The position numbers and the translations under genes were made by a program. DNA of 55,677 nucleotides, counting the filler, from Basidiobolus ranarum (lineage: Eukaryota), in assembly GCA_040143965.1 (NCBI GenBank). It is 5 parts of 5 records of this genome, joined end to end, with 100 filler letters (N's around TTAATTAATTAA, not from the genome) between each part and the next. Parts side by side here need not be neighbours in the genome. Positions count along the whole stretch, not along the records: positions 44,640 to 55,677 come from JASJQH010000644.1; 4 more parts are not named here. One strand, 5' to 3'. Below the pieces are notes generated by a model. The model was not told where the DNA came from and searched no databases. It worked only from the letters and a program-made list of their open reading frames with translations. Positions 10,413-55,677 of the stretch are shown here, piece after piece (the stretch's first letter is position 1; every line of letters starts with the position of its first letter).

Positions 10413-11076
10413 TTAGCTTTGGAGATGTAAACTACTTAGCGCGGTTCCTTTGGCTACTTCGGACATAACTTTCGTAAGATTCTCTTTATGGCATGGCTTG
10501 GTTAAACACATGTCCATTCCTGCAGCTAAGCATTCTTCTTTGGTTTTTGATTGCGCATCGGCAGTGAGTGCGACAACCGGAATCCTACGTGGTAGAAGAT
10601 TTTCTTGTTCAAAATTACGAATTCGGCGAGTGGCTTCATATCCATCACATAAGGGCATCATCTTATCCATAAAAATGCACGCGAATCCATTCGGTTTATC
10701 CTTATAAGCATCTACTACTTCTAAACCATTGTTGGTTACTGTCACGTCATAACCCATTTTCTCGAGCATACGTGTGATCAAGCGTTGCGCTACAAGGTTA
10801 TCTTCTGCTACCAACACATGCATCCCCTTACTGCCTTTTTCATTAGCAGCTCCGTTCTTGGATTTACTACCTTTATCGGAGAGGGAGAGTTTGGCTTTTT
10901 TCCGTGGTGTATGGTTTGAACTGACCGAAGTAGCGGTAGTGGTGGTGGCAATGGCGACAGTCGGCAGCGAAAGGGGAATACTGAGTTGTGTAGATACAGT
11001 GGATGGTTCTTCGACAAAGCCATTATCAAACATCTCCACGACACTCTGAAGTAGCAGTATTCTTCTGACTGGTTTT
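10413..11076 (-). CDS. C-terminus of a hybrid histidine kinase / response regulator (receiver domain), cut by the contig end
   Basis: Receiver-domain motifs VLVAEDNLVAQRL, IFMDKMMPLCDGYEAT, IPVVALTA and CLAAGMDMCLTKP. Confidence 0.9.
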
Positions 11077-11176
11077 NNNNNNNNNNNNNNNNNNNNNNNN
11101 NNNNNNNNNNNNNNNNNNNNTTAATTAATTAANNNNNNNNNNNNNNNNNNNNNNNNNNNNNNNNNNNNNNNNNNNN
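11077..11176. other. Artificial contig linker
   Basis: 44 N + TTAATTAATTAA (stops in all six frames) + 44 N. Confidence 0.98.
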
Positions 11177-14100: not shown

Positions 14101-14293
14101 AATCTTCTCTAAATCACCTCAAATTTTCACACATGCTTAACAAGCATTCTTATTATCATCTCAGCATGTTCGATAGTTGTATTTCATAGTAAACTATAAG
14201 CAGGACACATTCAAGGCCATAAAACCTAAGTGTCTAAATGCCAAATCCAATTCTTGCCCAAAACACTTCCAAATTCCCTAAACACTTTAATCA
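11177..14293 (+). mobile_element. Decayed Copia element (PR-IN-partly deleted RT-RNase H-PPT-3' LTR family A at ~13943-14293)
   Basis: Fragments WFIDSSAS, IHSDLCGP, TPQKNEAEECANRIIVEMARSMLHD, RIFGCKAY, YQFMVGSLMY, GYSHADW and SADILT in Copia domain order. A purine tract is followed by a ~350-bp LTR ending TTAATCA. Confidence 0.9.
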
Positions 14294-15057
14294 AATAATC
14301 TAGTTTTTCTTGTTTTGTCATCAATAAAAGTCATAAAGTGCCTTTTGCCACCTAGTGTGATGTTTTCATACATAACTCAGAATGCAACAAAGAAACATTC
14401 CAAGTGAGGTTTATCTCTCACAAGCTTGAAAAGAGCTATTGGTAATGTTTTCCATATATGCAACCATTATGCAGATCCAATTTGGAATATTCAAAGTATC
14501 TAAGCATGTAACTAGTGGATTGCTAATCATTTGGGTATGTTTTGTTTTCCAATATGGCCTAATCTTTAATGTTATTTATGTCTGCTTATTTCACTGGTTT
14601 TGGCCAGTTTGCTTGTTCAGAATGGAATTTGCTGAATGCTAGCTTGATATGCTTACAGTTTTGATCCTAGTAGTTAATTTAGTATCATTCTTATCTGCAA
14701 TAGAGCATCCAGCCTTGTAGAGCACAAACCAAGTCATTGAGCTGCTGGTTGGCTTACTGAGAGTAGATTTATGGTGATATTTGATTCACAGAGTACAGCA
14801 TGCTTTTTGCCAATGGTGTAGCTGCATTTTATCCTTGATTGAGCACAAGTGTGCACTGACCAACTGCATCTAGTGCACAGTAACTTACTAAATAGATCTT
14901 TCTTGTTTTGTTGGGTTTTAAGCTTGAAAACCAATCTTTCTTGTTTGACATATGCTGCAAAGCTTCTAAGATAATATATCACATTTCTGAGTCATCCTTT
15001 GTGGTTGCATATAGGAGAGACACAAGAAAATGATCTTGTTCAGTGCTTACTTGTCTA
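14294..15057 (-). mobile_element. Inverted Copia fragment (protease to integrase N-terminus)
   Basis: The reverse complement resembles 16210-17290. For example, off-frame YVKQERLVFKLKT matches YVKQERLVFQLKT at 16269-16538. Confidence 0.8.
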
Positions 15058-18000
15058 TATTGAAATCAGGTAAGTAGCAACTCATTATTTAGTAGTTAGT
15101 TTGTTCATATTCTGATTATTTAATACTCAATTCTGTCATTTAAAAACATGTGTTTATTGCTCTAATTGATAACAATATCAATTGGATCACTTTTATCCAT
15201 TTTCACAATTTTCTCAAGACTTCTCCAAATAACCAGAAGTTTTCACCCATGCTTAACAGGCATGTTTGTTATTATCTAAGCATGACCAATAGTTCTATTT
15301 CATAGTAATCTATAAACAGAACATATTCAATTCAACACAACTTAAGTTACTAATTCACACCTTCAAATCTTGTCCAAAACAGTTCTAAATCTCCTAAACA
15401 CTTTTATCAGGTCATAAGCCCCAAGCTTGCTATTAATGGAATGTCTACTAGTGTATTATCAATATTTTCACATGCACAAAGAAGTTAGATGGTAAAGACT
15501 TTGACCTTTGGATGTTAAACATGCAAATGGTGCTGGAAGACAAGGAGCTTTTGAGATTGTTACAGGAGAAGAGATAGAGCCAAGAGACCACCAGAAGCTA
15601 TCCTTGCCTTTCACAAGGAGCAGGGGAAAGCATTCTCTACACTTTGCCTACAACTTGGAGACTCTCTATTGAGACACATACATTCAGCTAAAAACAACTA
15701 AAATGCTTGAGAACCACTTAAGGGACTATATGAGACAAAAAGTCTGGCTAATAGGATATATCTTAGGTGAGAATTATTCTCAATTCAGATAAAAACTAAC
15801 AATTCTATACTTAATCATATTTATGGGATAAAACTAAGGCCAATCAGCTTTCATCCATTGGAGCACCCCTAAATGAAGATAACCTAGTCATGACACTACT
15901 TGGTAGCCTGCCAGACAAACTTGGGAGCCTTATAAATGCACTGGAATCAAGATCAGAGCCATTAACAATGGAATATATAGGTGCTAGGATTTTGAATGTG
16001 GAATTAAGGAGATCTAACTCTCAGCAAAATAATGCACAACAGGCCTTTTTTGGAGCTGTAACATGTCCAACAGGCTTCAATAATGGTGCTCCTAGTAGGA
16101 AATCAATCATCTGCAAGTATTGCAGGAAACCAGGCCTTCTTATCAAAAATTGTAGAAAAGGATTTTTGCTGAAAAGCTAAAGTTGGAATAAACAACTCAC
16201 AGAATCACTGATAGGGATCATCTATTTGTGTCTGCCCTATAAACAACCACCAATGAACACTCAGAAATGTGGTACACCAATTCTGGAGCTTCCCAGAATA
16301 TGTCAAACAAGAGAGATTGGTTTTCCAGCTTAAAACCTATCAAACAAAGAAATTCTACCTAGGTGATGACTATGCTCAAGATGAAGTTGATAAGGGTGCA
16401 GTTGTATTCAATTTAGACCAAAATTCATCTACACCATCTGCAAAATTGGATGATGCACTCTATGCACCAAATATAGCCTGGAATCTACTCTCAGTAAGCC
16501 AAGCAACACCTCAAGTACTAAATTTTGTGCTCAGCTAGGCTGGATGTGTTGAAATTAGGTAAATAACATCTCTTTTTTAGGTAGTTAGTTTGTTCATATT
16601 ATGATTATTTAGCACTCAATTCTGTCATTTAAAAATGTGTGTTTACAGCTCTAATGGACAAAAAATCAATTTGATCACTTTTACCAATTTTCACTATCTT
16701 CTCAAAACTTCTCCAAATCACCTCAAATTTTCACCCATGTTTAACAGGCATGTTTGTTATGATCCAAGCATGTCCAATAGTTCTATCTCAGAGTAAACTA
16801 CCAATAGGACATATTCAATTCAATAAAACTTTAGTGTCTAATTCACAAATCCAAATCTTGTTCAAAACAATTACAAATCCCCTAAACACTTTAATCAGGA
16901 TGCACTATCACAGATCTGAATATTACCAAATTAGCCACTGGGATCAAAATGCAAAACTTATTGAAGCTAGATATCAACAAGTTGCATTGTGAGCATGCAA
17001 CTGTAGCCAAAACCTGTGAAAAAAGCTGTCAATCATGGCATAGAAGATTAGGCCACGTTGGGGAGTAAAAATGGACCCCAATGATCTGAAATCAGCATGT
17101 TTCATGATTATAAATTGAGAATATCTCCAAATTGGATCAATGCAAGGTTCTCTATGTGAAACATCACAGACTGCAGTTTTCAAGCTCTGTAGAGATCAAA
17201 TCCACTTGGATTTTGGCTTGATTCATTCAGATCTATGTGAGCCCGTGCAAAACAACTCACTAGATGGGAAAAGGTAATTTATGAACTCTATTGATGACAA
17301 GATGGGATATTATGAAGCATTCCCAAGCAATGGTAGAGAAAGAATCAGCACAAACAATAAGGGTACTAAGGAGTGATAATGGTGGAGGACACCACTCTAA
17401 AGACTTTATTAGTTTTTGTTCTAAACATGGAATTAAGCAACAAACTACTGTATCTTATACTCCACAGCAAAATGGAGTTGCAGAATGTGCTAATATGACC
17501 AAAGTGGAGATAGCAAGATGAATGCTACATGATCAAAAGCTAGACTACCAATATCAAGCTGCATCTGCCTCCACTGCAGTCTATATTAAAGACAAATGCC
17601 TAAAAAGATTGCTACAAACTTCTACTCCATTTGAAGTCCTATACACATCAAAATCAAGTGTGAATTATCTCTGGATCTTTGGTTGCACTGCCTATTGCCT
17701 AATTGCAGCTCAAAACTGCAATATTGGAATCCAAAAGCAGAAAATGCATATTTCTTGATTATTGCAGTGAATCTAAGGCCTATAGACTGTTTGATACCAA
17801 AAATTAGAAGTTAATTAAGTGCAGAGATGGGATTGTTGATGAGAAAGCAAATTTTTCAACTCAAATCACAATACCCGTGCCAGAAAACACAATCAGGACT
17901 ATTCTGGAAGTGTCTGACAGAATTCCAGCTGTATCTGAGCCCTATTCAATCAAAATTTTAGTCTCAATTACATCAGAGAATGATTCAGGGCCTAAAAGAT

Positions 18001-18642
18001 CATAAAGAAGGAGAAATAAGCTGGGAAACTATTGGAACATTTCCAACAATGATGCATGCTTATGTAGCATTCTGTGATGAGCCACAGACTTTGAATCAAG
18101 CTCTGGAGTGTTCAGAACAAAAGTCATGGGAAAAAGCAATGTTTGATGAGCTTTTTTCACTTCAGGAAAATAAAACATTGGTTCAGGGAGAAAGCCAACA
18201 GGTTGCAAATGTGTCTACAAGGACAAAACTCAGTTGATAGAATCATAGAAAGGTAAAAAGCAAGATTAGTTGCCAAAGGTTATTTCCAGACTCCAAGAGT
18301 TGATATCAATTCAAACTTTGCTGTAGTGGCCAAGTTTAGCTCCAGTATATCAATCCTGGCACTCTCAGTCATCTGTAACCTTGATTTACATCAAGTGGAT
18401 GTAAAAACAGCCTGTCTGAATGGATATCTAGAAGAAGAAATCTATATGGAGCAACCAGATGGATTTGTTGACTCAAAACACCCTGATATGATCTGTAAAG
18501 TGCAAAAATTGCTATATGGACTCAAGCAAGCACACAGTGCATGGTGAAACAATGTAGATACCTATATGGACAGCAGATCACAATATCTACATCAAAACAA
18601 CTCTTGTCCAAGACACTTCCAAATCTCCTAAACACTTTCATC
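15058..18642 (+). mobile_element. Decayed Copia element: 5' LTR-A (15058-15409), PBS, gag, PR, IN, partial RT, ending in an LTR 3' fragment
   Basis: The LTR ends TTTTATCA followed by GGTCATAAGCCC. Motifs include CKYCRKPGLLIKNC, VLRSDNGG...YTPQQNGVAE and LHQVDVKTACLNGYLEEEIYMEQPDGF...LYGLKQA. Confidence 0.92.
16547..16897 (+). repeat. Nested solo LTR (family A) with 5-bp TSD GGATG
   Basis: Reads GGATG|TGTTGAAATTAGG...TTAATCA|GGATG. The uninterrupted site GCTGGATGCACTA is present in another copy near 49108. Confidence 0.92.
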
Positions 18643-18867
18643 AGTTTGGCTAGTTCCTGCTTTAGCTTTTTAACCAAATATTTCTTACAAAAAGATTTGA
18701 CTAGATGACCTGGTTTCTTGCAATATATGCAGATGAATGATTTCCTATTAGTGGCATCATTGTTGAAGCCTGTTTGATGTTTAACAGCTCCAAAAGATGC
18801 CCAATCTGCATTATTCATTCACAAGCCTGGTTCAGAGCAATAAGCACATGTTTGTGAATGGCAGAAT

Positions 18868-19149
18868 TATTGAAATTATTTAGGGAAAAATATTGGTCTG
18901 GCCATGATTTAAACCTAGGACCTCCTTCACTCTAGCAAGGTGCTCTAACCACTGAGTTACCAGTCCTTGTATTCTATGCCTATATAACTAGGGAACCTTA
19001 ACCTAGTCTGTCAATGTATGGTACTTTGGCATTTCAGCCATACAAGCAACTGATTGGCCTTGGACTTTGTGTTCAGATGCAATCACCATACACTGTATTT
19101 TCCTCTTTGGGAATTACTGCTTGTACCACAAGTCTCTAGACTTTCAACA
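18868..19149 (-). mobile_element. 282-bp solo-LTR-like insertion carrying a tRNA-like cassette, 5-bp TSD AGAAT
   Basis: Reads AGAAT|TATTGAAA...TTTCAACA|AGAAT, with 7/8-matching inverted termini. Removing it rejoins the LTR-A sequence (GCACTCTATTCT-GCCATTCACAAACATGTG on the minus strand). Confidence 0.85.
18894..18966 (-). tRNA. Degenerate tRNA-like sequence (73 nt, nominal anticodon AGA) inside the LTR-like element; probably not a functional tRNA
   Basis: GGACTGG TA ACTC AGTGGTTA GAGC A CCTTG CTAGAGT GAAGG AGGTC CTAGG TTTAAAT CATGG CCAGACC A folds as a cloverleaf with about one mismatch per stem. It has an A box and a decayed B box, and is followed by TTTTT. Confidence 0.7.
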
Positions 19150-19239
19150 AGAATAGAGTGCAAAATAATTGAATTTGAATAAACTAACTGCTAAAAAATG
19201 TGCTGCTATTTACCTAATTTTCAACAATCTCTTCAACAT

Positions 19240-19830
19240 GATCAGCTGATTCTTGACTGTGTTACAGGTGAGCCATCAGGGGACTTGCAAGATACTTTTG
19301 GTAACTGATGGCCATATTGTGTAATACACAGAATGTTTCAATGCCTTTCAAAAAGTGCCAAAATCTTAAACAAAATTGGCTTCCAAGCAAAAGGCTGCTG
19401 GCAGGAATGGAAAAAACCAGCAAAAACAGAAACCTCAGTTGATGAGCAGTCTAGTGTTTCACTCTCCACTTTGGAAGGCATGAACATGCTTGTAACTACC
19501 TCAAGTAACAATAAAACATTATTGAATTGACCAGATGTCTTCCTTTATGGCAACAGTACAATTGACTAGGCTGCAATTGCCCAATTACATAATATATAAC
19601 AATTGAGTAAAGCATTACAGAAAAATAGTCAAGACCAATAACTTCAAAAACGCTTAATTTGCCCACTGTCAAAGACCCCTCTGTGTGTAATTCAGACAAA
19701 GTTATTACAACAATGCAATTTCAGGCAGAATACCACAATATTTTGTATGTTATTAAAAGTAACAACAGAAAGGTGCTCCATTGGCTGGGTAAACAATATC
19801 ACAATTAATGCAGCATTCTGAAGCTACTAG
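19240..19830 (+). repeat. Unclassified dispersed repeat with decayed coding potential (copy 1)
   Basis: Colinear similarity to the reverse complement of 54430-55075, with shared blocks such as CAAGCAAAAG, TCCACTTTGGAAGGCAT, AGTTATTACAACAA and CAATTAATGCAG. Confidence 0.7.
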
Positions 19831-20869
19831 TCAACAGTTAGAGAGTCACTGAACAATGATAAAAGAACTTGAGAATGCTGCACTTGAGCCACAGTGACAT
19901 GCTGCACCCTCCATCTATTCTCATACAGGACTCCAATGAATCCCACACCATACATTTAAACAACACTATGATAATCTAACAGAGCAGAATATGTGTTAGT
20001 AGGGGGCATGTATCTAGAAATCTTATAGGAAACCAGCAACCCAAGGATCTTGAATGTTAGAGCTGATGTTACTTGCTCTGCTCATAAATGGTTTGACATT
20101 TTGGAAACTGCATAGAATTGTGACCCGAATTACCTGGATTTGAGCAGATTGTGGAAAAACCAAAGACCAAACATTACTTAGAAGATTCTTAACTTATTTC
20201 TTGTGTCTTATCCTGGTTATTGCATGCAAATAGCAAAAGAGCTAGTGTAGGCCTCTTCAAGATACAGCTCATAAGTGTATGCAATTATTGACTTGGAAAA
20301 GAAAGAAACCCAGCCAAAGTCTTACTCAAGGAGCAGGAAGCTTGTAAGCCCCGTGGAAGAGCAAATAAACCAGTAATATAGGCGCTATTGTTCCACTTTT
20401 TTTGGGAGCTCACTAAGTCCCTCTTATATCCCATGGGTTTACTTCTTTCTTACTATTATGATACTGTTTTAGCTTCTTTTCTTTGTTTTCCTGGTCACTA
20501 ATACTTATTTTCCTAAGATATTCTATGGATAGGCATGTAGTTGCTCAATTACCTTGTGCTCAATAGAAACCGGGATATGCCATGAGTTAGAGGCTATAAC
20601 TATTATGAGTAATACCTGGCTTCAGGTTTTTGTGGGGCCTATTCATGTTGAAGTAAATTTAGGCAAGATTCCACCCAGCTTGCCAGATATTAAATCACTC
20701 ATCAGACTTGTTTGATTTGTTGGGTCAGATTGGGCCACCTGAAAAGTGTGCCAGCACCATTTGATGCAAATAGATTCTGGTCAGCACAATATTATATACC
20801 AATTCCAAAGTTGTTGTCTTACTTGGTTGACATACTCAGCATAGCTGCTGTTAGACATTATAGCCAATT

Positions 20870-21352
20870 CTAAACATGATTAAAGCTTAATTCATGGTGT
20901 TTTAAGTCAAGAGCTTTTAACGGATATTTTTGAGTAAGAAGACAATGAGAATTATTCAAGATTATGACTACTTTGCCCAACTTTGACTGGAAGCTACAAA
21001 ATGATCTTCCTCTATACTTTCCTGTTACAATGCTGAATCTCTTCAGGAAGCTAAAGCAATGCTCTACTCTTGCTCTAAAATTAGAAAGAATATCTTTATA
21101 AGGTTTTGCCTTTCTGTAAGTATTGCTCTGCTGGGCATCTTGTTAGCTTTGATACATCTTCACATTCTGCATTCTTCCCCTATATGTGCCAGATCTGCCA
21201 TAGTCTTCTCATGTTTCACAAATGGTGCATACAGCTTTACCAGAAGCCAGTTGTCAAGTGGTCTGCTTGATGGTGGCCCACCTTACAACACAATCTCTCC
21301 TTTTCAGTCTGTGACAGCATGTAACTCTATGCAATCAGTTTTCAATTGCCAG
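20870..21352 (-). pseudogene. PIF/Harbinger-IS5-like (DDE_Tnp_4) transposase C-terminal relic
   Basis: Minus-strand translation gives AVTD*KGEIVL*GGPPSSRPLDNWL...EKTMADLAHIG...KMPSRAILTERQ, a frameshift, then DILSNFRARVEHCFSFLKRFSIVTGKYRG. Its 5' part is cut by an LTR at 21353. Confidence 0.75.
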
Positions 21353-22236
21353 TGGTGAAATTAGGTAAATAGCAATTCATTATTTAGTTGTTAGTTTATA
21401 TATAATCTGATTATTTAGCGCTCAATTCTGCCTTTCCAAATTGTATTATCAATTAGATCACTTTTATCAATTTTCACTATTTTCTCAGAATTCTCCAAAA
21501 CACCTCAAATTCTCACCCATGCTTAACAGAACTGTTGGCTATGTTTTGAGCATGTCCCCTAGTCCTATTTCATAGTAAATTATTAATAGGATATAATCAA
21601 TTCAACAAAATGGAAGTTTCTAATTCACAGATACAATTATTGTCCAAAACATTTCCAAATCCTGTAAACACTCGTATCAGGTTATAAGCCCCAAGCTTGC
21701 TGTTAATGGAATGTCTACTAGTGCTATTATCAAAATTTTTGCATGCACAGAGAAGTTTAATGGTGAAGACTTTTACCTCTGGGAGTTTAAGATGCAAATG
21801 GTACTAGAAGAAAAGGACATTTGGGGATTTGTCACTGGAGAAGAAATAGAGCTAAAGGGAACACCAGAAGCTATCCTTGTTTCTCACAAGAAGCAGAGGA
21901 ATGCTCTCTCTACGATTTGTCTACATCTCAGAGACTCTCAGTTGAGGCACACATAATCAGCTAAAAATGTCCAAAATCCTTGGGAAACACTTGAGGGACA
22001 ATATGAGACTATAAGTCTGGCTAATAGGCTATATCTTAGGCAAAAATTATTCCCAATTCACAAGAGTTCTGATGACACTATGCTTAATCATAAAAATCAC
22101 ATCAAAACTGTGGCAGATCAGCTCTCATCCATTGGAGCACCTCTAAATGAACATGACTTAGCCCTGAAATTACTTAGGAGCCTGCCAGACAAGGTTGGAA
22201 AATTCATAATTGACCTACATTCAAGAGCAGAGCCAT
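21353..22236 (+). mobile_element. Copia 5' LTR-A (21353-21679), PBS and gag, cut by the contig end
   Basis: The LTR is followed by GGTTATAAGCCC and gag EKFNGEDFYLWEFKMQMVLEEKDIW. Confidence 0.9.
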
Positions 22237-22336
22237 NNNNNNNNNNNNNNNNNNNNNNNNNNNNNNNNNNNNNNNNNNNNTTAATTAATTAANNNNNNNN
22301 NNNNNNNNNNNNNNNNNNNNNNNNNNNNNNNNNNNN
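22237..22336. other. Artificial contig linker
   Basis: N44-TTAATTAATTAA-N44. Confidence 0.98.
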
Positions 22337-33394: not shown

Positions 33395-33494
33395 NNNNNN
33401 NNNNNNNNNNNNNNNNNNNNNNNNNNNNNNNNNNNNNNTTAATTAATTAANNNNNNNNNNNNNNNNNNNNNNNNNNNNNNNNNNNNNNNNNNNN
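33395..33494. other. Artificial contig linker
   Basis: N44-TTAATTAATTAA-N44. Confidence 0.98.
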
Positions 33495-43840: not shown

Positions 43841-44539
43841 CTAGTTTTTCTTAGTGAGTGGTCTGTACACACCGACGACAAGAGCGTGATCACGTTCATA
43901 AGGCTCTAAGGTCAACTGTTCTTGGGGCTTGATGCGCTCTTGTTGAAGCTTCTTGACTTCAGAAGCGAAGACCTTAGCAGCATCAACAGTAGAATCAATA
44001 CAGTTAGCCTTGATGGAGATAACGATGTGACCATCATTCTTCAAGAAATTGTGAGCATTCAAAGCAATAATTCTAGCTTGATCAGGTTGGGCAACATCAG
44101 CGAAGATAACATCGACCATACCGACAAACATACGATACTTGTGAGGATGACGAGCATCTTCAATGATAGGTACTACGTTAGTACGCTTCTTGGCCATGTT
44201 GATAAGTTCACGACCGGGACGGTGAGAGAACTCGACAGCATACACAACACCTTCAGGACCAACAATATCGGCAACATGGGAAACAGTAGTACCGGAGGCA
44301 CCACCGAGGTAGAGAACCTTCTTACCGGGAGCAATGTGAACATGATCAACACCACCTAAGATACCAGCAGCCAACTTGGAACGGAAAGGATTCCAGACAC
44401 GGTACTCAATTTTGGTGCCATCAGGACCTTCAACGGAGACTCTCTTTTCACCGTAGACAGCTTCACCGGGAACGAGATTCTTGGTAACGAGCAAATCTTC
44501 CTTACCACGGGCAACGAAGACACCCTCATGTCTATGGGG
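43841..44539 (-). CDS. NOP1: Fibrillarin, rRNA 2'-O-methyltransferase; 5' cut by the contig end
   Basis: [50 protein letters not shown] and LEPYERDHA. Confidence 0.98.
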
Positions 44540-44639
44540 NNNNNNNNNNNNNNNNNNNNNNNNNNNNNNNNNNNNNNNNNNNNTTAATTAATTAANNNNN
44601 NNNNNNNNNNNNNNNNNNNNNNNNNNNNNNNNNNNNNNN
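44540..44639. other. Artificial contig linker
   Basis: N44-TTAATTAATTAA-N44. Confidence 0.98.
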
Positions 44640-44847
44640 TTCACTATTTTCTCAAAACTTCTCCAAATCACCTCAAATTTTCACCCATGCTTAACAGGCA
44701 TGTTTGTTATGATCTAAGCACGTCCAATAGTCCTATTTCATAGTAAGCTATAAATAAGACATATTCAATTCAATAAAACTTAAGTGTCTAATTCACATAT
44801 CCAAATCTTGTCCAAAACACTTCCAAATCCCCTAAACACTTTTATCA
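44640..44847 (+). repeat. 3' portion of LTR family A
   Basis: Closely similar to ~16690-16897 and ends CACTTTTATCA. Confidence 0.9.
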
Positions 44848-44884
44848 AGATTTGTTTTTGATCTTCAGAATTGTATGTCTCTAA

Positions 44885-45500
44885 ATGTTTCTATTGGGAA
44901 GCAAAGATTTTACCATATTGGTGATCATTAAGAGACTTCCTTCATCTATGCACAAAGTTACAACAACCAATAACTTATCAACTCATAGATATGCAATTGC
45001 TTTTTCTAAACATCTTGATGGAGAAATGATGTATGTAGCTTTTAAATCTTCTGAAACTATAAATCACATGTTAACAGATATTCCTTTTGTCAAGAAAGTC
45101 CCCTTTGTTGGCCAATTTTTTGAAGGATTTGTACACTCTTGATTTTATAATATTGCAAAAGACATTCCACTTGGTGAATTTATTAAATTAATGGACACTA
45201 AAACAATTAAAAATATTGTATTTACCAGTCATTCACTAGGAGGAGCCATTGCTTCCAGTGTTGCTCTTCAGTTATTAGTATGGCCTAATATAAACAAAAA
45301 TTCTATTTGGATTTATACATTTGGGTCACCTCCAATTGGTGATATTGAATTTGGAAAATATTGTAAAATGCAATATTCTGATAACTTTACATCTTTTTAT
45401 AACAAGAGTGATGTTATTCCTTGCATTGCTAGAATTGCACTTAGTCTAAGTAAATCCATTTGCAACCAGCATAGCAGTTATTTGTATAATTATCAAGATG
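44885..45500 (+). pseudogene. Intronless class-3 lipase remnant
   Basis: One frame with a single stop: MYVAFKSSETINHMLTDI...VHS*FY...IVFTSHSLGGAIAS...IYTFGSPPIGD..F...NKSDVIPCI. These correspond to lipase_3 motifs VHxGF, GHSLGG, YTFGSP and DxVP. Confidence 0.85.
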
Positions 45501-45519
45501 GGTATATATTAAAAATTTT

Positions 45520-45757
45520 TTTGAAGAATGTCATTCTCAGACTCCAAGAGTTGATTTTTTTCAGACTGTTGCTTCAGCAGCTTAGATTAACTCCCTTAGA
45601 TCAATCCATGCAATCTCAGTTGTCCTTAACCTCACTTTGCATGAAGTGGATACAAAAAACACCTTACTGAGTTGAAATGTGTAAGAAGAGATTTATATGG
45701 AGCAACCTGATTAATATATTCATCCAAAAGAGCCAGATATGCTCTGAACACTGCAAA
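45520..45757 (+). mobile_element. Copia RT fragment
   Basis: Resembles 18270-18500 (CAGACTCCAAGAGTTGAT...GAAGAGATTTATATGGAGCAACC). Confidence 0.8.
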
Positions 45758-46810
45758 ATGGCATCTGGGCATATTCCAAAGAGCTTATATCCCCACAAGT
45801 GACAATAGAAGAAACATAAACTTGCATTCTTTGCTCTATCATAACAAAAGCAAATACATTACAAGCTGACCGGTTGTACCTATCATCACCACTAGATGGA
45901 TTTCCATAAGAGTATATATTTGATGGTTTGCATGATACATATGTCACCTAACTTAAGCATATACTGCTCATCAGGTTCCACAAGCCCTGTCTTGCCAGAT
46001 TCAAAAAGTATCTCCCAAAAAAGTTTACCCACCTTATTCCAATCTATTAGTGTACCAGAGAGTTTAAATAGCAGTCTAAGGAACTTTCCTGGAGAATTTT
46101 TAACATGAATAATTCTTGGGATTTGTTTGTAATAAGATACAGAGATCAAAGGATGAATTTGTTTGAGTTTAGTCCTCAGAGATTCAAACTTGCCAGCATA
46201 AAATCCTACAATGTATCTAGCAAACAGTATGGGATGGCTTGTGTCACAATTTTCATATGGTAAAACACTTTGTAACCAATTGTGTACCTCAAGAACTTTG
46301 TCTTCAGGGATATTTGAAAGCAAACACAGCATGAAAAGATGCTTAATAATGCCAGTGCTTTTTTGGTCTGGGGTTTCACACAAACACATGTATCCCAACT
46401 GGCTGGCACAAATAGCTTGCATATGGGTATTTGAAGTGTTCTTGTCATAAGGTGTGATAATTTTTCTAAACATAGAGAATATATCTATGACAGATATTTG
46501 CCAGACTAAGTTTACCATTTTGGAATATATTTTTCCATGTAAAATTTGTTAACCTTCTTCAAGAATGGTAAGAAGTACATCATCCAAAAAAGTTTGCAGA
46601 CAATTTTTAGTATCTGATAGCTTAATGGCATTATTTGAAATCTGATCCAAAAGAATACATGAAGCCTTTACAGTTTTGTTCCCATAATTGTCTAGGTCCA
46701 TAGGCTGAATGATATCCTTGTAAGTCATAAGGGTCATGAATGACAATGAGCAAAGTGTGTATGTAACATTTCTTTTATCTTATGATTGGAAATGTTTAGA
46801 CTCCTAGATT
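45758..46810 (-). pseudogene. Highly divergent, intronless DNA-directed RNA polymerase second-largest subunit (Rpb2/beta-like) remnant
   Basis: Motifs occur in Rpb2 order: DLDNYGNKTV (cf. DDRDHYGNKRL), QAICASQLGYMCLCETPDQKSTGIIKHL (cf. RQLHxxxWGxxCPxETPEGxxxGLVKNL), SPGKFLRLLF (cf. GRxxRPL), LVEPDEQ, YNRSACNVFAFVMIEQRM (cf. HNQSPRNxYQxAMxKQAM) and LEYAQMPF (cf. LxYPQxPL). There is one stop at 46549 and one frameshift near 45930. Confidence 0.82.
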
Positions 46811-46979
46811 TGTAAATCTTTGAGGGTGATGGAAATTTTGGATTCTGTCACAGAAAATATGAAGATGGTGGGGGAGGTGTGAAAATTGCATTTATTGGCA
46901 ATTTGCTATATTAACTCAAGCAAGTGCCCAGAGCATGTACAACAAGATAGAGACTGTTGCATTCCTGATGCGCAATATT

Positions 46980-47957
46980 GAGAAGGTGATGGTGTTGCAG
47001 ACTGGGGAAGAAACCCTGAAGCTAGAAATTCAACACCTGGGTCAACAATGCTCTATGGTAATGGAGCTGTTACATCAAGCTGATAGAAGTAACCAACCAC
47101 AGCACTATCCACTACACAAGCAGAGTAATGGCAAAAAAAAAATAAAAGTTCAATAACCAGGCACACTTGCTGCATGGTTATGGAGCCATTATTTGAAAGA
47201 GCAGGAAGCAACCAACCATAGCACTTTCCACCAGAGAAGGAGAGTATATAGTTACTTCTGCAACTACACAAGAAGCTATGTGTTTAAGGAGGCAATTTAT
47301 TCATCCTCTACTTTTACAAAAGAAGCCATGTAACCTAAGAAGCTATTCACTGACATTGGTTACATACATACTCATGCTATTGCTATATCTGAAGATAATA
47401 AAAGTAGCTTTTTTTTATAGCTGGAAACCCTACAGTTCATGGTATAACAGAATATGTAAATATTAGGCATTGCTTTATGAGAATAGCAATAGAAAATGAC
47501 ATTATTAACATTGTCTATTGCCCTACTGAAGAAATGATTGCAGACATCTTAACTTAAACCTTATCTAAAGCATAATTTGAATTATTGAGATATAAGAGAG
47601 GTTTGAGTGAAATACATAACATTTAGTGACTAGCAATGTTGAAATTAGGTGAGTAGATACTTGTCCCTTAGTAGTAAGTTTATTCATAGTATGCTACTTA
47701 AGCACTCAATTGTGACATTAAATAATATTTATTTATTGCTACAATTGAGATATATTGGATTGATCACTTCTTCAATTTCAGCTATTTTCTCAATACTTTT
47801 CAAAACCATCTGATATTTTTGTCCATGCTTTACAAGCATGTTTATTATGATCAAAGCTCATTCAATAGTCCTATTTTGCTGCAAATCTAGCAAGTTACTT
47901 TTTCATTAATGCAAATCATTTCCTATACACTTTCACATCCCATATACACTTATATCA
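46980..47957 (+). mobile_element. Copia RNase H remnant (internally reiterated) and 3' LTR (47637-47957)
   Basis: ADWGRN..., KSRKQPTIALSTREGEY and YCPTEEMIADILT, then TGTTGAAATTAGG...TTATATCA. Confidence 0.85.
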
Positions 47958-47962
47958 GAGAT

Positions 47963-50900
47963 TGTGTGACTAGCAACTCATGATTTAGTAGTTAGTATAT
48001 TAATAATGTATTTATTGGATACTCATACCTGATGTGCAAAAGTGTTAGCCAATTTTTGGAACTTTCTCAGAACTTATATGTAACACCTTAAATTTCATTT
48101 TTACTTTACCAGCATGTTTGTTATAAATTAAACAACTACTAGAATGCTATTTTAAAGTAAACCATGAATAAGCCTTATTCAATTCAAGAAATCATGGATG
48201 TCTGACCCACAAATCCAAATTTGATCCAAAAAACCACTGAATCCTTCAAACACTTTGATCAGTTTATCATCCTGAAGATAGCTGTCAGAGGAATGTTCAC
48301 CAGCACTATTTCTAGCTTATTTACACTAACAAAGAAGTTGGATGGAGAAGATTTACATCTTTAAAGTTCAAGATGAAATGGTGCTACAAGACCCAGATCT
48401 TTGGGGATTTGTTACAGCGGAAGAAATAGAGCCATAAGGATCACCAGAAGCAATCCATGCCTTCCACAAGAAGCGGTGGAAAGCCTCTCTACACTTTGAC
48501 TATGTCTTAGAGACTCCCAATTAAGACACATACAATATGTCAACTCTTTCCAAAATGCTAGGAAAACACTGGAGAGACTACATGAGACTGAATTTATAGC
48601 TGACAAGTTATATCTCTGATGAATATGAATTTCAATTTTGATAAATTCTGGTCTTCTAAGGCTAATCATAAAAATAGGATAAAAGCAATGGCAGGTCTGC
48701 TCTCATTCATTTGAGCACCTCTAAATGAATATGAATTGTTCATGAGCTAAAATCAGAAAACCCAAATGAATTAAGCATCAATAGGGATCATATGTTTGTA
48801 TCTGCACTATCACTAACCACTAAGGAAGACTTAAAATTTGATACATTGAGTCAGGAGCTTCCAAACATTTTTCAAACCAAAAACATTGTTTCCCACTCAA
48901 AGCCAAGCCAAAAAGGAAGTGTTTATTTGGGAGATGAGTATGCTTTGAATGTAGTTGGTAATGCCACAGATGTACTTGACTCAGACCAATCTTTAGCTAC
49001 ACTATCTGCAATATTAGATGATTTATCCTTGCTATCTACCATGTTCAAGAATCTGCTATTAGTGTGCTGTGTCACTGAGCAAAGGTTAAGGCTTGTGTTC
49101 TGCAAAGCTGGATGCACTACTACAGATCAGAAAAACACCAAGTTTGGTGCTGGGATCAAAACTCCAGATATATACAAGCTATAAGTTAACAAAATGGTTT
49201 CAGAGCATGATAACTTGGCTAATACTGATAAAACAGCTGTCAAATGTTGCATGGATGAATAGGTCACATTGGGAAATCAGAAACAGTTGCAAATGAACCA
49301 AGGTTGGCTTGTTTCAGGCTAAAAATTTGTGAATATCACTAAACTGGTTCAAAGAATATGTTGCATATTTGGAATATTTCACAGACTGCAGTTTTCAAGC
49401 TCAGGAGAAACCAAGTCTACTCAGGATTTTCCATGCAGACATTCAGACCTATTGGGGCTAATTAAGAATATCTAACTGGGTGGCAAATGGTACTTTATGC
49501 CCTTGATTGCTGATTAAGCAAGTAATACTTGGGTTTTATTTCTCAATTCAAAGTCTGAAGCTTTTGGTACATTCAAGCATTACCAAAAAAAGAGTACTTT
49601 TGAGTGATAATGGTGAAAAATTGTTCTCTAAGCACTTATCATGTTGTTATTTTTAGCAAGAAATTAAGCAAGAAACTTCTGTATCTTATACAGTACCAGG
49701 AAATGGAGTGGCAAAATACAATTATAGGCCTAATTGAAGATGGCAACTCCAATGTTATATGATTAAAAGCTAGATTACTACTATTGGACTTATTCTGGTG
49801 CTATTGCAGTCAACAAGAAAGCCAACAGGTTCCAAATGGATCTATGAAGTGGAAAATCAAGTTGATGGAACCTAAGAAAGATACAAAGTAAGTTAGCTGA
49901 AAATGCTATTCACAGACTGTGGGAGTTGATTTAAATGGAATGAAAGCTCCAGTAGCAGAGGTTAACTATATTAGAACACTCCAGGGACTCATTGCCATAC
50001 AGATTCTTGATTTACATCCAATACAAATCAGATTATCAAACTGATCTCAGAAGACTGATCAGGTGGAGATAAGTCATTTCTAGATAACCAAATTGGGATA
50101 TATCCAACCACAAAATCATGTTGAGTCAGCCTAGATACATCAAATGCATTCCAAAGAACTTTGACATGGAGAATAGCAAGCTTGTATCAACACACATGGA
50201 TCCCATGTAAATGTAATCAAAATCCTTTCCCATTTGGCCAAAAATGCCTCTAATCAAAGCCAGGAGTTCCCCAATCCATCCATGATGGATAGTTAAACAT
50301 AGAGGTTTGCTTCAACACACCCAGATATTGCTGTGGCAGTGGTAACCCTTGACCAATATCTGAATAATCCTGGATCTGAGCAAAACAATTCAGTAACACA
50401 AATATTGTGATACTTGGGAGGAATTGCAGATCTAATTATGGAACACTCTGGTGCACCTGACACACAAATGCCACATGCCACAGTGATGCAGGCTGTAAAT
50501 AAAACCTTGATGATAGAAGATTTACCACTGGGCATACTCTTTCTATAGTCGTGATGCCCTTATTTGAAAAAGCAAGAAACAATCAATCATAGCACTTTCC
50601 ATTAGAGAGGCTGAATATATATTTGCCACTGAAACTTCACAGGAAGCTATGTATTTAAGGAGGCTATATACTGACTAATTATTTATGTCAAATATGCTCT
50701 TGCCGTGTTAGATAATAAACACACTTGTATTTGATTATTGAGAAATCTTACATTTTGTGCCATAACAGAACATTTAAATTTCAGGCATTGTTTTGTTGGC
50801 TACAGTGATGCAGACTGGGGAAGAAGCTTTGATAATAGAAGATTTTAAAATAGCCATAAGTAACCAATGATGGAACTGTCCACTATAGATGCAGAGCATA

Positions 50901-51711
50901 TTGCTGCATAATGATGATACAAGCTCAACAACTGTGAACACTTTCTCTACAGTTATGGTGCCATTACTTGAAGCAGCAAGAAGCAACTAACCATAGCACT
51001 TTCCACCAGATAAGCCAAGTATATAGTTGCCTCTGCAACTACACAAGAAGCTATGTGCTTAAGGAGGCTATTTACTCACTTATGACATGTTTCAAAACAT
51101 GCTATTGCCATATTTGAAGATAATCAGAGTTATATTGCATTATTGAGAAACCCTACATTTCATGTTATATCAGAACATTTAGATCTTTGACATCATTTTA
51201 TCAAGGAAGCAATAATGAGTGACAATCTTGTACTTGTGCAGCACCATGTCAAAGAAATGATTGCTGATATCTTGACCACACCTCCAGTTAAGGCACATTT
51301 TAAATTTTGAAGAGTTGATTTAAGCTCAGGAGAACTACAAACTAAGCAGTTGAGAGGGAATGTCAAAATTTGGTAAATAGCAACTCATTACTTGGTGGTT
51401 AGTTTCTTCATATGACTATTATTTGGCTCTCAATTTTAACATTCAAAAGCATGTGTCTATTGGTAGAATTGACAGATATATCAATCAGTTCACTTTGACC
51501 AATTTTCAACATTTTCTTAAAACATCTCCAATTCTCCTCATATTCACATCCATGCTTAACAGGCATGTTTGTTATGACCTAAACCCTACCAGTAGTATTA
51601 TCTCAGGGTATTCTACAAACACACTATATTTAAGTCAATATATCTTCAGTGTGTAATTCGTCAACTCAAATCTTTTCCTAAACAGTTGCAAAGCCTTCCA
51701 TGCTTTTATCA
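47963..51711 (+). mobile_element. Heavily decayed, internally deleted Copia element: 5' LTR remnant to 48261, gag-PR-IN-RT-reiterated RNase H, PPT, 3' LTR 51361-51711
   Basis: Colinear with 15058-18550. PPT AGTTGAGAGGGAA lies directly before TGTCAAAATTTGGTAAATAGC, and the LTR ends TTTTATCA. Confidence 0.85.
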
Positions 51712-52560
51712 AAGGGTGTAACCAGTAGTTGGTAATGTTTTTTCAGGTTGCTTCCCCAGCCTGCATTGTTGAAGCCTTCAAAATTCTTTTCATCTGTCTA
51801 TGACTTGAGTCATTTGGGGGCCAATTCAACCAAAGCTGAGTGAATTTTACATTGGGATCAATTAGTGTGGATGCTGTGTGCCACTCTCTATGTTGAAGCT
51901 GTATACAATATCTAGGTTGAGTCCATACTGAATCTAATTTCATTTTTAATTGTTGATTTGAAATCCAGTGACATAATATGCATTCTTGAAATTTCAGTGA
52001 GTCCAATAGGTATTTACCTTGTCACAGTGCAATCTAGGTGCTTACTTGAGAACATAGACAATTTTTTGCAGCTTTCAGACCATATCAGGGTGCTGTGGGC
52101 TAACAAATCACTTCAGTGTCTCCATATAGAACTCCACTTCTAGATTTGCATACGGAAAATCTGTTGTTGCATACATCTGATACAAATCAAGATTATGGAT
52201 TCTGATAGTGCCAGTGTCAATTGAATAGAGCTGAACTAAGCTAATGGATTGAAAGTCTCATACAAACCAACTCCTGTACTGTAATATACCCTTTTATAAC
52301 TGATCTTGCTCCACTACTTTCTGTGATTGCATCAGCTTGGTTTATCACTCTGTTGACCTTTTTACAACCTATTGGCTTTCTTGTTGATATCAGAAGACTT
52401 AAAACTCCCATTGGTTGTTTTCAGGTGAAAAACTGATCAAACTTGGCTTTTTCCCAAGGTTTGGATTTTGGCCTATATAGGTATTGATACTGAGTTTGTG
52501 ATGTGTTACCAGATACTGCACAAGCATAGATTTAATCATGGGAAGCTTTACAAACATATC
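51712..52560 (-). mobile_element. Inverted Copia RT/RNase H remnant
   Basis: Minus-strand fragments RKPIGCK, ASTLIDPNVK and FEGFNNAGWGSNL (cf. GYSDADW). Confidence 0.7.
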
Positions 52561-52664
52561 TGGGTTTACTTCTTTTAGATGATCTTTTAGGACATGATAT
52601 GTCCTCTGATATTAGATAGGACAAACATATGGTTGAGTTAGGCTTAAAATATTAGATTGTGCTT

Positions 52665-52941
52665 TGTTGGTTAGACATATTGATTGTTCTTACTTTTCAC
52701 CTCAGCTTAGTAATAGGGTTACCCTAACAACATCATCTAATTGCTATATGTAATCAATTCAATCAGCATGTTTATTGGAGCTACATTTAGATTTGATTAG
52801 ACCATATGCATGGTCAAATGCTGAGCTATTATACTGAGTATCAGCCACTATCAATCTATAGGATATTAGTTAGTGATCATATTATGAGTCATATGCCCAT
52901 CTGATCATGAAAATGTAGTAAATATCAGACATCACCCAACA
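52665..52941. repeat. Candidate solo LTR of a further family
   Basis: Begins TGTTGG, ends CCAACA, 277 bp and CpG-free. There is no TSD and no second copy in the window. Confidence 0.4.
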
Positions 52942-53219
52942 TTGAATTAACCAGTTCTATTTGCAGTAATATTCCAATTCTATAGGATGACTTCCCCAAG
53001 AAGGCTGACTCTGATGCATTAACTATGCATATCAACAAAATAAAGGCCATGGTGCTGAAGCAGGCTATTTTAGGAAAAACATTGTAAAAATTGACTTCAG
53101 CTATGCATTGTTCAATTTTCTACCACCAAGCTACTTGGTGATCATTGAAAATGTGGAGACTGTTGATGAGGTACTATAAACCAAGTTAGAAGAAACTGCT
53201 AGAAGGTGCCACTGGATAT

Positions 53220-53570
53220 TGTTAAAAGTGTTTTGGGGACTTGGAAGTATTATGGACAAGATCTGGATATATGAATTAGATGCCTAAGTTTTATTGACTT
53301 GAATACTTCCTGTTTTTAGTTTGCTATGAAATAGCACTACTGGAGGTGCTTTGATCATAACAAACATGCCTGTTAAGCATGGGTTAAAATTGAGATGATT
53401 TAGAGAAGCTTTGAGAAAATAGTGAAAATTGGTAAAAGTTATCTAATTGATATTTGCATCAATTAGAGCAATAAACAAATGTTTTTGAATGGTAGAAATG
53501 AGTACTAAATAATCCAAATATGAATAAACTAACTACTAAATAATGAGTTGCTATTTACCTAATTTCAACA
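53220..53570 (-). repeat. Solo LTR family A
   Basis: The minus strand reads TGTTGAAATTAGGTAAATAGCAACTC...CACTTTTAACA and is colinear with 16547-16897. Confidence 0.9.
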
Positions 53571-53689
53571 AATCTTTTGCTAGATGTCTTAATGTTTAAT
53601 ACATTTTAGAAACCCATTGGTATTATATAACAAAGGATGCACAACAAATATCACATTATTACAACATAAATTGTTGCCAAAATATAGTA

Positions 53690-53920
53690 AACGGAATAGT
53701 ATGGAATAAAAATTGGGATAGGAATTAATAAAAATGAAAATTGTAACCCATTTTTTTTGCTTATAATAGAATGCGAAATAGAGATAAAAATTAAATTTTT
53801 TGTACAGTAAAATGGGAAATAGAGAAGAGAAAACCTATTTTTTATGGGGGAAAATGGTAAAATGGGAAATAGGGAAGGAAAAACCATATATTTTTATGGG
53901 GAAAAAAATGGTACACCTAA
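53690..53920. repeat. AT-rich tract with reiterated AAAATGGGAAATAG / TTTTTATGGGG motifs
   Basis: The motifs recur at ~53710, ~53810, ~53860 and ~53895, with a strong purine strand bias. Confidence 0.55.
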
Positions 53921-53959
53921 ATATAATTAAATAATCCTATAAATATATAAAATAGTTAT

Positions 53960-54420
53960 AGCATCAACAAGTCTGCCCAAGTCAGATGCATTACAATACC
54001 CAAGATCTATACATTCACTGCTTTTGGGCTCCAACTCAGAGCATATTCAAGCTAGAATTAGGCAATATGCAGTGCAACCAAAGATGCTGAGATGCTCTAC
54101 ACCTAGTTCTGATCCATAATGGAGTAGAATTTTGTAGTTATCATGCTGGGCATCTGTTATTGTTATAAACTGCAGTGGACACAGATTCAGCTCAATAGTG
54201 GTAATCTAAACTTTGATCATGTACCTTAAGTCTTGCTGCCTTCACTATGCTGCCATTAGCTTGTTCTGCAACTCCATCTTGCTGTGGAGTCAAAGGTACA
54301 GTAGTTTGCTGCCTATTCCATGTCTGGTGCAAAACCAGCAAAGTTTTTGGAACATTATTCTGCATCATTATTTCTCCTTAGTACTGCTATTTTTTTGGCT
54401 GATTCATTCTCTACCATTGC
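53960..54420 (-). mobile_element. Inverted Copia integrase remnant
   Basis: The minus strand reads TPQQDGVAEQAN..., AESVSTAVY..NRCP and VEHLSIFGCTAYCLI...LEPKSSECIDLGY. Confidence 0.8.
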
Positions 54421-54429
54421 TTTCTAGAG

Positions 54430-55075
54430 CTTGAATATAGCTAAGGACACTGCATTAATTGCAATATTTTGGGTTTATTGCTTGACATGGCCTGTACAGC
54501 GACTTTGTAGTTTTTACTTTTGATTGCAAACAATTCATTATGGTGCTCTGCATGTGACTCCCTTGTTGTAATAACTCTATTCAAAATATCTACACAGGGG
54601 TGTTCAACAATTTGCAAAGTAGATATTTTGTAAGTTGAAGGTCTTGACAGTTTTCTGTTGAGCTTTGCTCCACTATTGATTTGCTATATAAGGAGTTTGT
54701 AATCTCTTAACTTGCACTATTGCCAGAAAGGAACATGTCTGGCAATTAGATTAATCCTTCATCATTACTTTATTTAGTTTCCAGCTTGTCAATGCCTTCC
54801 AAAGTGGATTGGGGATAGCTAGACTGTGCATCAATCAAGAACTCTATTCTTGCTGGGTCTCTCCCTTCCTCCTTGCAGGCTTTTGCTTGAAAGGTAATTT
54901 TAATTCAGATTTTGATCACTTTCTCAATGGTAATAATATATTCAGATGGTAAACTGGTACAGTAAACAGATCAGAAACAACTGATAATGAATCAAAATTG
55001 CAATCCACTACTGGAAATATCTTGTTAACCCCCCCCAATGACTCATTGGTGATACCATCTCAGAACCAGCTGTTG
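54430..55075 (-). repeat. Unclassified dispersed repeat with decayed coding potential (copy 2)
   Basis: Homologous to 19240-19830 (see that entry). Confidence 0.7.
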
Positions 55076-55677
55076 ATATTGATGTGATATATCTACAATA
55101 CTACCTTTATGTAGTAGATGTTTCTCATGCTGCAACACAAACATTTAAAGAAGCCCTGCTTTTATTATCACCAATTCTTGCACTATGAGAACTGCAGGCT
55201 TCATAAAGAAGATAATTACAAGCTTGTTTACTTTACAAAGTCACCAGCTGCACAAATCCTGGTGAATATCAACAGTAATAAGTGCACAAAATTGACTTTA
55301 GTTTTGCCACTGAGTCCACTGGTGGTACTTTGCCTCAAAGTATAGGTAATAGTGCTGAAAGTCAAGTTACCATGGAGTTACCACAGATATATGCCCAGAA
55401 AGATGTGGGTAGAAATGCAACTTTGGTCAAACCAGTAAGTCCAGAAAACTTTGAGGACTTGCTGCTAGCTATTAACCCTAACAGAAATTTGAGGATTGTT
55501 ATCGTAGGAAAACCGTCACAATTTTAATCCATTTGGGGTTGACCGTTTGCTTACCGCCATAAAATTGTCAAGTTAGATTTGATTTTAATCAATTTTTTCA
55601 GTTTCAGGAGTGAAATTTCAAGATCTTGCAAAATAGTTGCAAATGATTGGCTAAAATCTCAGAGAACTATGGATCAA

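Follow-up and report, generated by a model that had tools for sequence, protein, structure and literature searches.

Is a broken RNA polymerase gene in the genome of the fungus Basidiobolus ranarum a remnant of one of the host's own genes, of a linear plasmid or of a large DNA virus? The question is raised by a locus in a stretch of 55,677 nucleotides from the assembly GCA_040143965.1 (the window), which consists of five records joined with 100-N fillers, with no implication that adjoining parts are neighbours in the genome. The locus lies in the part at 44,640-55,677, which comes from JASJQH010000644.1. A first-pass annotation had placed an intronless, CpG-depleted relic of an Rpb2-type polymerase subunit at 45758-46810 (about 340 codons), with Copia debris on both sides, and had read it as the fossil of a giant virus or of a pGKL-type linear plasmid and not as a host pseudogene. 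We consider it highly probable that the relic is a dead RPB2 fragment from a giant-virus-like (Nucleocytoviricota-like) DNA virus of the fundsalphavirus lineage. Taken alone, it is a small dead gene fragment of a kind already known in Basidiobolus, and the novelty implied at first does not stand: such elements, with RPB2 and with retrotransposons nearby, were published from two other Basidiobolus species in 2020 (Gong, Zhang and Han 2020, Virus Evolution, PMC7017919).

An internal RPB2 fragment with a broken reading frame

The window was searched by tblastn with six related proteins (P0087, P0002, P0006, P0004, P0005 and P0007), and the relic was delimited from these matches and the family alignment. 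With the B. ranarum paralogue P0087 as query, it occupies 46902-45750 on the minus strand (about 384 codons), so that the extent first proposed was slightly small. Three pieces in different frames make up the relic. The first (45940-46902, frame -1, 321 codons) is 64% identical to P0087 (E 4e-128), the second (45854-45937, frame -3) follows the first frameshift, and the third (45750-45878, frame -2) follows the second, carries the start of Rpb2 domain 6 and stops abruptly at a Copia fragment. The alignment is colinear and without introns, as had been claimed, and is interrupted only by the two frameshifts and by a deletion of about 10 residues, which the family alignment places at the frameshifts. 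The fork domain (Rpb2 domain 3) at 46324-46500 on the minus strand, residues 94-152 of the translated 46779-45895, is the sole part that Pfam recognises (RNA_pol_Rpb2_3, PF04565; E 3.7e-8; 33.9 bits, where the cut-off is 21). Archaeal Rpo2 in PDB also matches the relic (E 5e-6). The presence of an Rpb2-type relic is thus upheld both by the domain model and by the tblastn alignment.

The relic corresponds to residues 187-590 of the full-length relative P0004 (963 residues), and neither end is present: about 186 residues are gone at the N-terminus and about 370 at the C-terminus, and the middle 40% of the gene is left. The sequence ends about 45 residues into domain 6, the hybrid-binding catalytic domain, with most of that domain and all of domain 7 absent; the full-length P0004 and P0007 carry both. 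No additional piece of RPB2 was found by tblastn with the six relatives elsewhere in the window. Besides the two frameshifts, three in-frame stops are located in the first piece (TAG at 46804-46806, TAA at 46780-46782 and TAA at 46549-46551). Within the span of the relic the family alignment has 38 invariant columns, of which 27 are kept, in order, and 11 are changed or deleted. Because the catalytic part is absent and the frame is broken, with 11 of the 38 invariant residues gone as well, the relic is unable to yield a working protein.

The public gene model K7432_009912 (protein P0001 = KAK9763416, 255 residues) overlies the relic at 45720-46779 on the minus strand. Its protein is 100% identical to the relic, begins at an internal methionine and leaves out 23 residues around a TAA stop; therefore, the annotation masks a pseudogene. 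As it splices out the in-frame TAA, the gene model is artefactual and should be flagged as a pseudogene.

A compact RPB2 family and its viral gene neighbourhood

An exhaustive search of 1.84 billion representative proteins returned 86 matches to the relic with E up to 0.001, and a word-based search that sought longer homologues gave no score to any of its 989 candidates. The top match is the identical B. ranarum protein P0001, followed by three proteins of the same species, namely P0002 (62% identity), P0006 (74%) and P0087 (64%, a cluster member). Thus, at least three more divergent B. ranarum copies are located on contigs outside the window; all three reach past both ends of the relic and do not share its junctions. 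The open frame of P0087 runs uninterrupted for at least 570 codons and nearly fills its 1.8-kb contig. Further relatives, full-length at 880-1000 residues, come from assemblies of sequencing runs and metagenomes, and one protein, P0007 (883 residues), comes from Linnemannia elongata (= Mortierella elongata). One match, P0003 (3249 residues, 15 matched stretches), was discarded as a repetitive protein unrelated to polymerases, and P0031 (10 matched stretches) was excluded from the trees.

When the conserved C-terminal half of P0004 was used for a second search, the proteins in the top 83 of the 120 listed rows were 595-1032 residues long and carried Rpb2 domains 3, 6 and 7, joined in a few by domain 1 or 5; their contigs measure up to 124 kb. 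Another compact relative, P0188 (889 residues, row 89), sits on a 137-kb contig, and archaeal Rpo2 ranks below the compact proteins. An Atlas look-up of P0004 gave generic Rpb2 clusters only. The family measures 820-1030 residues, compared with about 1100-1250 for cellular Rpb2, and the short spacers first noticed in the relic are confirmed for the family. Together with the better-preserved P0087, the relic is a marker of a lineage whose polymerase genes are unusually small.

This lineage is common in metagenomes, yet it was found in a single contig of IMG/VR. The 80 best of at least 592 confirmed relatives in that database (at least 599 pattern matches) reach an identity of only 27-34%, and RPB2 measures 1026-1339 residues (open frames taken from stop to stop) in the 71 of these 80 loci where the gene could be extracted; no compact-type RPB2 is among the 80. 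The single contig (L082, 4.1 kb) was recovered with a motif typical of many compact members, though not of all (P0008 is without it). The compact lineage therefore seems to be largely missed by viral catalogues. The relic had no match in a bacterial plasmid collection, as expected for bacterial plasmids.

The phylogenetic position was estimated with FastTree (78 rows) and with a quick IQ-TREE search under LG+C20 (47 rows); 31 rows had been dropped before the latter (14 compact proteins, 10 of 18 from IMG/VR, 2 archaeal-type and 5 unnamed long proteins). In both trees the window fragment clusters with the other three B. ranarum copies (support 100), and this cluster is joined to P0004 and P0005, again with support 100. 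The compact clade in the IQ-TREE result comprises 24 rows, has a Shimodaira-Hasegawa-like approximate likelihood-ratio (SH-aLRT) support of 100 and a stem of 0.72, and stands apart from archaeal Rpo2, microsporidian RPC2, Mucoromycota RPA2, eight IMG/VR RPB2 sequences and Pithovirus LCPAC104.

What such a gene is accompanied by can be read from L081, a Joint Genome Institute (JGI) metagenome contig that carries the compact RPB2 P0008; 21.7 kb of it were read and about 15 kb lie outside. According to Pfam, its other genes encode a D5 primase-helicase, an XPG/flap nuclease, a capping enzyme with methyltransferase, a helicase with an SNF2-type C-terminal domain, a family B DNA polymerase of 765 residues, which matches the DNA_pol_B and exo1 models, and a class-3 lipase. 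Ten more open frames have no Pfam match, and no RPB1 piece was found either in these 21.7 kb or in the window.

Fundsalphavirus elements have been described in 14 species of fungi, among them Basidiobolus meristosporus, B. heterosporus, Mortierella elongata and M. verticillata, and beside the DNA polymerase they share D5, SNF2, a SAM (S-adenosylmethionine) methyltransferase, RPB2, RPB5 and a split RP1 (PMC7017919). The gene set of L081 and the precedent in Basidiobolus therefore lead us to conclude that the relic is a fragment of fundsalphavirus type, which would make B. ranarum the third Basidiobolus species with such DNA. The first suggestion of a fossil virus-encoded, streamlined polymerase is thereby retained, given the compact family and the core-gene neighbours on L081. 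The donor would have been a Nucleocytoviricota-like DNA virus of a lineage that occurs in Basidiobolus, Mortierella, other fungi and Physcomitrella. In such a virus, the compact subunit of 820-1030 residues would take part, alongside the other viral polymerase subunits, a capping enzyme and an SNF2 helicase, in transcription of the viral genes that does not depend on the host polymerases. The viral gene would then have been integrated in the host, cut to an internal fragment and silenced, with its CpG removed by methylation and deamination.

The B. ranarum copies differ from one another by 26-38% in protein sequence, and yet the relic has just five disabling lesions; therefore, much of the divergence probably predates integration. 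Similar reasoning was applied to moss copies in the available text of Maumus et al. (2014, Nat Commun, PMC4083422). The divergence among copies fits repeated insertions of different viral strains over time. It is conceivable, though rather unlikely, that B. ranarum has recently been infected, or is still infected, by a living member of the compact-polymerase lineage; this reading is based on P0087, which is uninterrupted as far as its contig extends and keeps 49 of 52 invariant residues, versus the 27 of 38 in the relic. In the literature searched, no described isolate or virion of the lineage was found. If such infection were real, a group so far known only from genome fossils and metagenomes would become open to experiment in a fungus that is non-zoosporic and can be cultured.

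Copia fragments, CpG loss and alternative origins

The host genes of the window include those for an oligopeptide transporter, a response-regulator protein and fibrillarin (43841-44587, 1.2 kb left of the relic), and several of them are spread over several open frames. These genes and host-type transposons share the 55.7-kb window with the degraded relic. The nearness of fibrillarin, and a CpG ratio in the relic (0.03) equal to that of the Copia sequence next to it (0.04), speak for integration in the host chromosome. Pairs of 44-base N runs, 12 bases apart, were also seen at 11077-11176, 22237-22336, 33395-33494 and 44540-44639, with a period of about 11,160 bases, and the fibrillarin gene is broken near its beginning by one of them. 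Spacing this even suggests masked sequence and not assembly gaps.

Copia debris is present on both sides of the relic, as had been noticed at first. On the left, a reverse-transcriptase fragment with five in-frame stops (45538-45757, plus strand; Pfam RVT_2, E 5.9e-8, model positions 45-117 of 244) abuts the truncated 3' end of the relic, and is 73% identical over 233 bases to 18276-18507, inside an RVT_2 open frame (blastn). On the right, a fragment of the C-terminal part of Copia pol is followed by long terminal repeat (LTR)-like sequence (46950-47876, plus strand). The start of this piece is approximate: it begins near 46950, about 50 bases past the 5' end of the relic, and is detectable by blastn from 47087. 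Within the window, 47087-47850 matches 50858-51577, and 47777-47876 matches 44640-44738. Its translation contains what we take, by their appearance, to be Copia-type motifs. Between 46950 and 47350 on the plus strand, a motif near the end of pol appears two to three times in different frames, and a segment of about 100 bases is seemingly duplicated; TRF scored no tandem repeat in 46800-47700, though the motif looks duplicated by eye. Farther left lies an LTR-like repeat (44640-44851), for which blastn finds eight more matching stretches within the window.

Between that repeat and the reverse-transcriptase fragment is a class-3 lipase pseudogene (44885-45526, plus strand; Pfam Lipase_3, E 7e-16) with an in-frame TGA at 45140-45142. 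The lipase pseudogene directly adjoins the relic, and on L081, too, a class-3 lipase gene lies about 7 kb away from RPB2. The two lipases are 28% identical over 110 residues (38 bits). The window lipase scores 34-41 bits in PDB to Mucorales lipases and plant EDS1, and its Atlas clusters mix plant and giant-virus sequences. The lipase pseudogene may belong to the same viral insertion as the relic, although the PDB and Atlas comparisons fit a fungal source as well as a viral one.

The reported CpG depletion was borne out. A single CpG occurs in the 1153 bases of the relic (observed/expected 0.03), whereas host genes of the window have ratios of about 0.5-1.0; the ratio is 0.04 in the adjoining right-hand Copia sequence and 0.00 in the left lipase open frame, which contains no CpG. 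The whole window falls into two states in 1-kb bins, with gene stretches at about 0.5-1.0 and transposon blocks at 0.00-0.19. The CpG-depleted transposon blocks are found at 1-2000, 11000-22000 and 44900-55677, and have TpG and CpA in excess; the last of them, which holds the relic, has ratios of 0.00-0.09. Such a landscape points to strong cytosine methylation that is specific to compartments of this fungal genome, or to a comparable mutational process. We read the CpG loss in the relic as the likely outcome of long-term cytosine methylation and deamination of silenced DNA. At the protein level, mismatches that could be explained by one C-to-T or G-to-A change, versus those in the reverse direction, number 37 versus 26 against P0087, 25 versus 28 against P0002 and 15 versus 9 against P0006, and those that need more than one such change number 73, 66 and 12, respectively, in comparisons where the other copies have probably decayed too. 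The fate of such DNA in B. ranarum appears to include trimming to an internal fragment, joining to Copia sequence and loss of CpG like that of the nearby transposons.

Read along one strand, 44640-47876 presents an LTR-like repeat, the lipase, Copia reverse transcriptase, RPB2 in reverse, a Copia pol tail and LTR-like sequence, and resembles a Copia shell with foreign gene fragments in place of its interior. Capture by Copia, or the patching of a break in a Copia element by the fragment, would make the relic a passenger in a chimeric LTR element and would leave its viral origin unchanged. Such a route is possible but doubtful. At each junction internal RPB2 sequence meets internal Copia sequence and not an LTR end, the two Copia pieces share a strand and run colinearly between LTR-like repeats, and retrotransposons have been suggested to aid the integration and proliferation of fundsalphavirus elements (PMC7017919). 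However, the likeness of the flanking LTR-like pieces to each other is only 82% (over 100 bases), and that of the left one to a further copy at 16690-16901 is 91.5%. Moreover, the three other B. ranarum copies are without these junctions, and two independent truncated Copia insertions followed by deletions would give an identical picture.

It is most unlikely that the relic has been kept for a benefit to the host, for instance as a template for small RNAs against related viruses. A small-RNA role has been suggested for comparable regions in moss, several copies have been kept in B. ranarum, and the relic carries the annotated gene model P0001. That model, however, is the splicing artefact described above, and the CpG loss of the relic equals that of the neighbouring transposons, which indicates plain silencing.

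An integrated cytoplasmic linear plasmid (virus-like element) of the pGKL2 type was the other half of the first proposal, and must be regarded as more improbable still. The contigs of related genes reach 137 kb, far above the size of pGKL2, which is about 13 kb. Besides a D5 primase-helicase and a flap nuclease, L081 encodes a DNA polymerase that fits the DNA_pol_B and exo1 models. Rpb2 domain 7 is the last domain of the full-length relatives P0004 (963 residues) and P0007 (883 residues), and no beta'/Rpb1-type domain was reported in them; the comparison is made on these proteins, as the relic is truncated before that point. The large subunit of pGKL2 (K2ORF6p), by contrast, is a beta-beta' fusion, described as unique in the accessible text of Sykora et al. 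(2018, PMC6211774), from whose description pGKL2 is compared here. The stand-alone Rpb2 with a normal domain 7 thus sets the family apart from the plasmid polymerase. The likeness is nevertheless considerable, as K2ORF6p and K2ORF7p form a miniaturised multisubunit-type polymerase in which the spacers between the conserved beta regions are shortened, and as the compact subunit and the capping enzyme and SNF2-type helicase on L081 have counterparts among the pGKL2 functions set out there (PMC6211774).

The claim that the relic is not a host pseudogene also holds. Far higher scores would be expected of a copied host fungal gene than those of P0087: over its 570 residues, P0087 scores 157 bits against mammalian RPB2, 154 against archaeal Rpo2, 121-128 against yeast RPB2, 127 against RPC2 and 70-80 against RPA2 in PDB. 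Because yeast RPB2 scores below archaeal Rpo2, a copy of host RPB2 is ruled out. Furthermore, the approximately unbiased (AU) test (23 rows, LG+G4) rejects a grouping of the B. ranarum copies with the RPC2/RPA2 clade (delta lnL, the log-likelihood difference, 404; p 1e-52), the tested group having been named after the first tree had been seen. A processed or duplicated nuclear RPB2, RPC2 or RPA2 pseudogene that diverged after duplication is thus barely credible, even though the relic lies without introns in a host chromosome and the family profile scores best against Pol II RPB2 in PDB (589 bits; archaeal Rpo2 561), since the compact architecture is peculiar to the family and its members turn up on metagenome contigs beside genes for viral replication, and since three stops and two frameshifts in 384 codons would be too few for neutral decay to about 30% identity.

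Weighing the probable viral origin against known systems

Several observations weigh against a viral fragment of the fundsalphavirus lineage. Capsid, packaging ATPase and VLTF3 genes are absent from the 20 open frames of L081 scanned with Pfam (21.7 kb); a virion-forming nature of the lineage is not demonstrated by the genes of L081, and divergent capsid genes may escape Pfam. The window has no match to L081 genes besides the RPB2 relic and the lipase. Part of the CpG depletion of the relic could be inherited from the virus, because L081 is itself CpG-poor (observed/expected 0.41, and 0.29 for its RPB2). The compact clade does not group with Pithovirus LCPAC104 in our trees, whereas a published DNA-polymerase tree puts the fundsalphavirus lineage near Pithovirus (PMC7017919). 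The rejection of a host origin rests on RPC2, RPA2 and archaeal sequences and on PDB scores, in trees that are without a verified Pol II RPB2. Likewise, the proposed fundsalphavirus identity draws on the host genus, the L. elongata member of the clade and gene content, the published sequences being outside the trees.

Among known systems, recognised giant viruses (those in IMG/VR, and Pithovirus LCPAC104, QBK90672) encode a protein of the same family, with a virus-encoded role in transcription. Their RPB2 is longer, as seen in IMG/VR, and their clades are separate from the compact family. The Mycodnaviridae (Mycodnavirales) of zoosporic fungi are another case of giant-virus DNA in the genomes of early-diverging fungi, according to the available portions of two reports (PMC13533422, PMC13524828). 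They are, however, defined by capsid genes, and Dimargaris is given in the available text as their sole non-zoosporic species (PMC13533422), whereas Basidiobolus is non-zoosporic.

Closer in gene content are the regions resembling nucleocytoplasmic large DNA viruses (NCLDV) in the moss Physcomitrella patens, for which the accessible text lists RPB2, DNA polymerase, D5, SNF2, flap endonuclease and mRNA capping methyltransferase, the same gene set as on L081. LTR retrotransposons are inserted in these regions, and their divergent copies are taken there as several insertions of distinct viral DNAs (PMC4083422). They differ in their plant host, in forming clusters of many genes and in having a split RP1n/RP1c as a signature, as far as the available text describes them, and the word lipase does not occur in the main text of that paper (PMC4083422).

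The fundsalphavirus elements share with the relic the host genus Basidiobolus, RPB2 as one of their common genes, and stops, frameshifts and retrotransposons close by (PMC7017919). An L. elongata protein falls in the compact clade, and D5, SNF2, methyltransferase/capping enzyme and DNA polymerase B of L081 match the published set; the linked set of these four with RPB2 is complete on L081, whereas the window has only the RPB2 fragment and the lipase. B. ranarum lies outside the 14 listed hosts, and here only an internal fragment of 1.15 kb survives, accompanied by no candidate viral gene other than, at most, the lipase. Such a fragment would add B. ranarum to the hosts of this giant-virus-like lineage.

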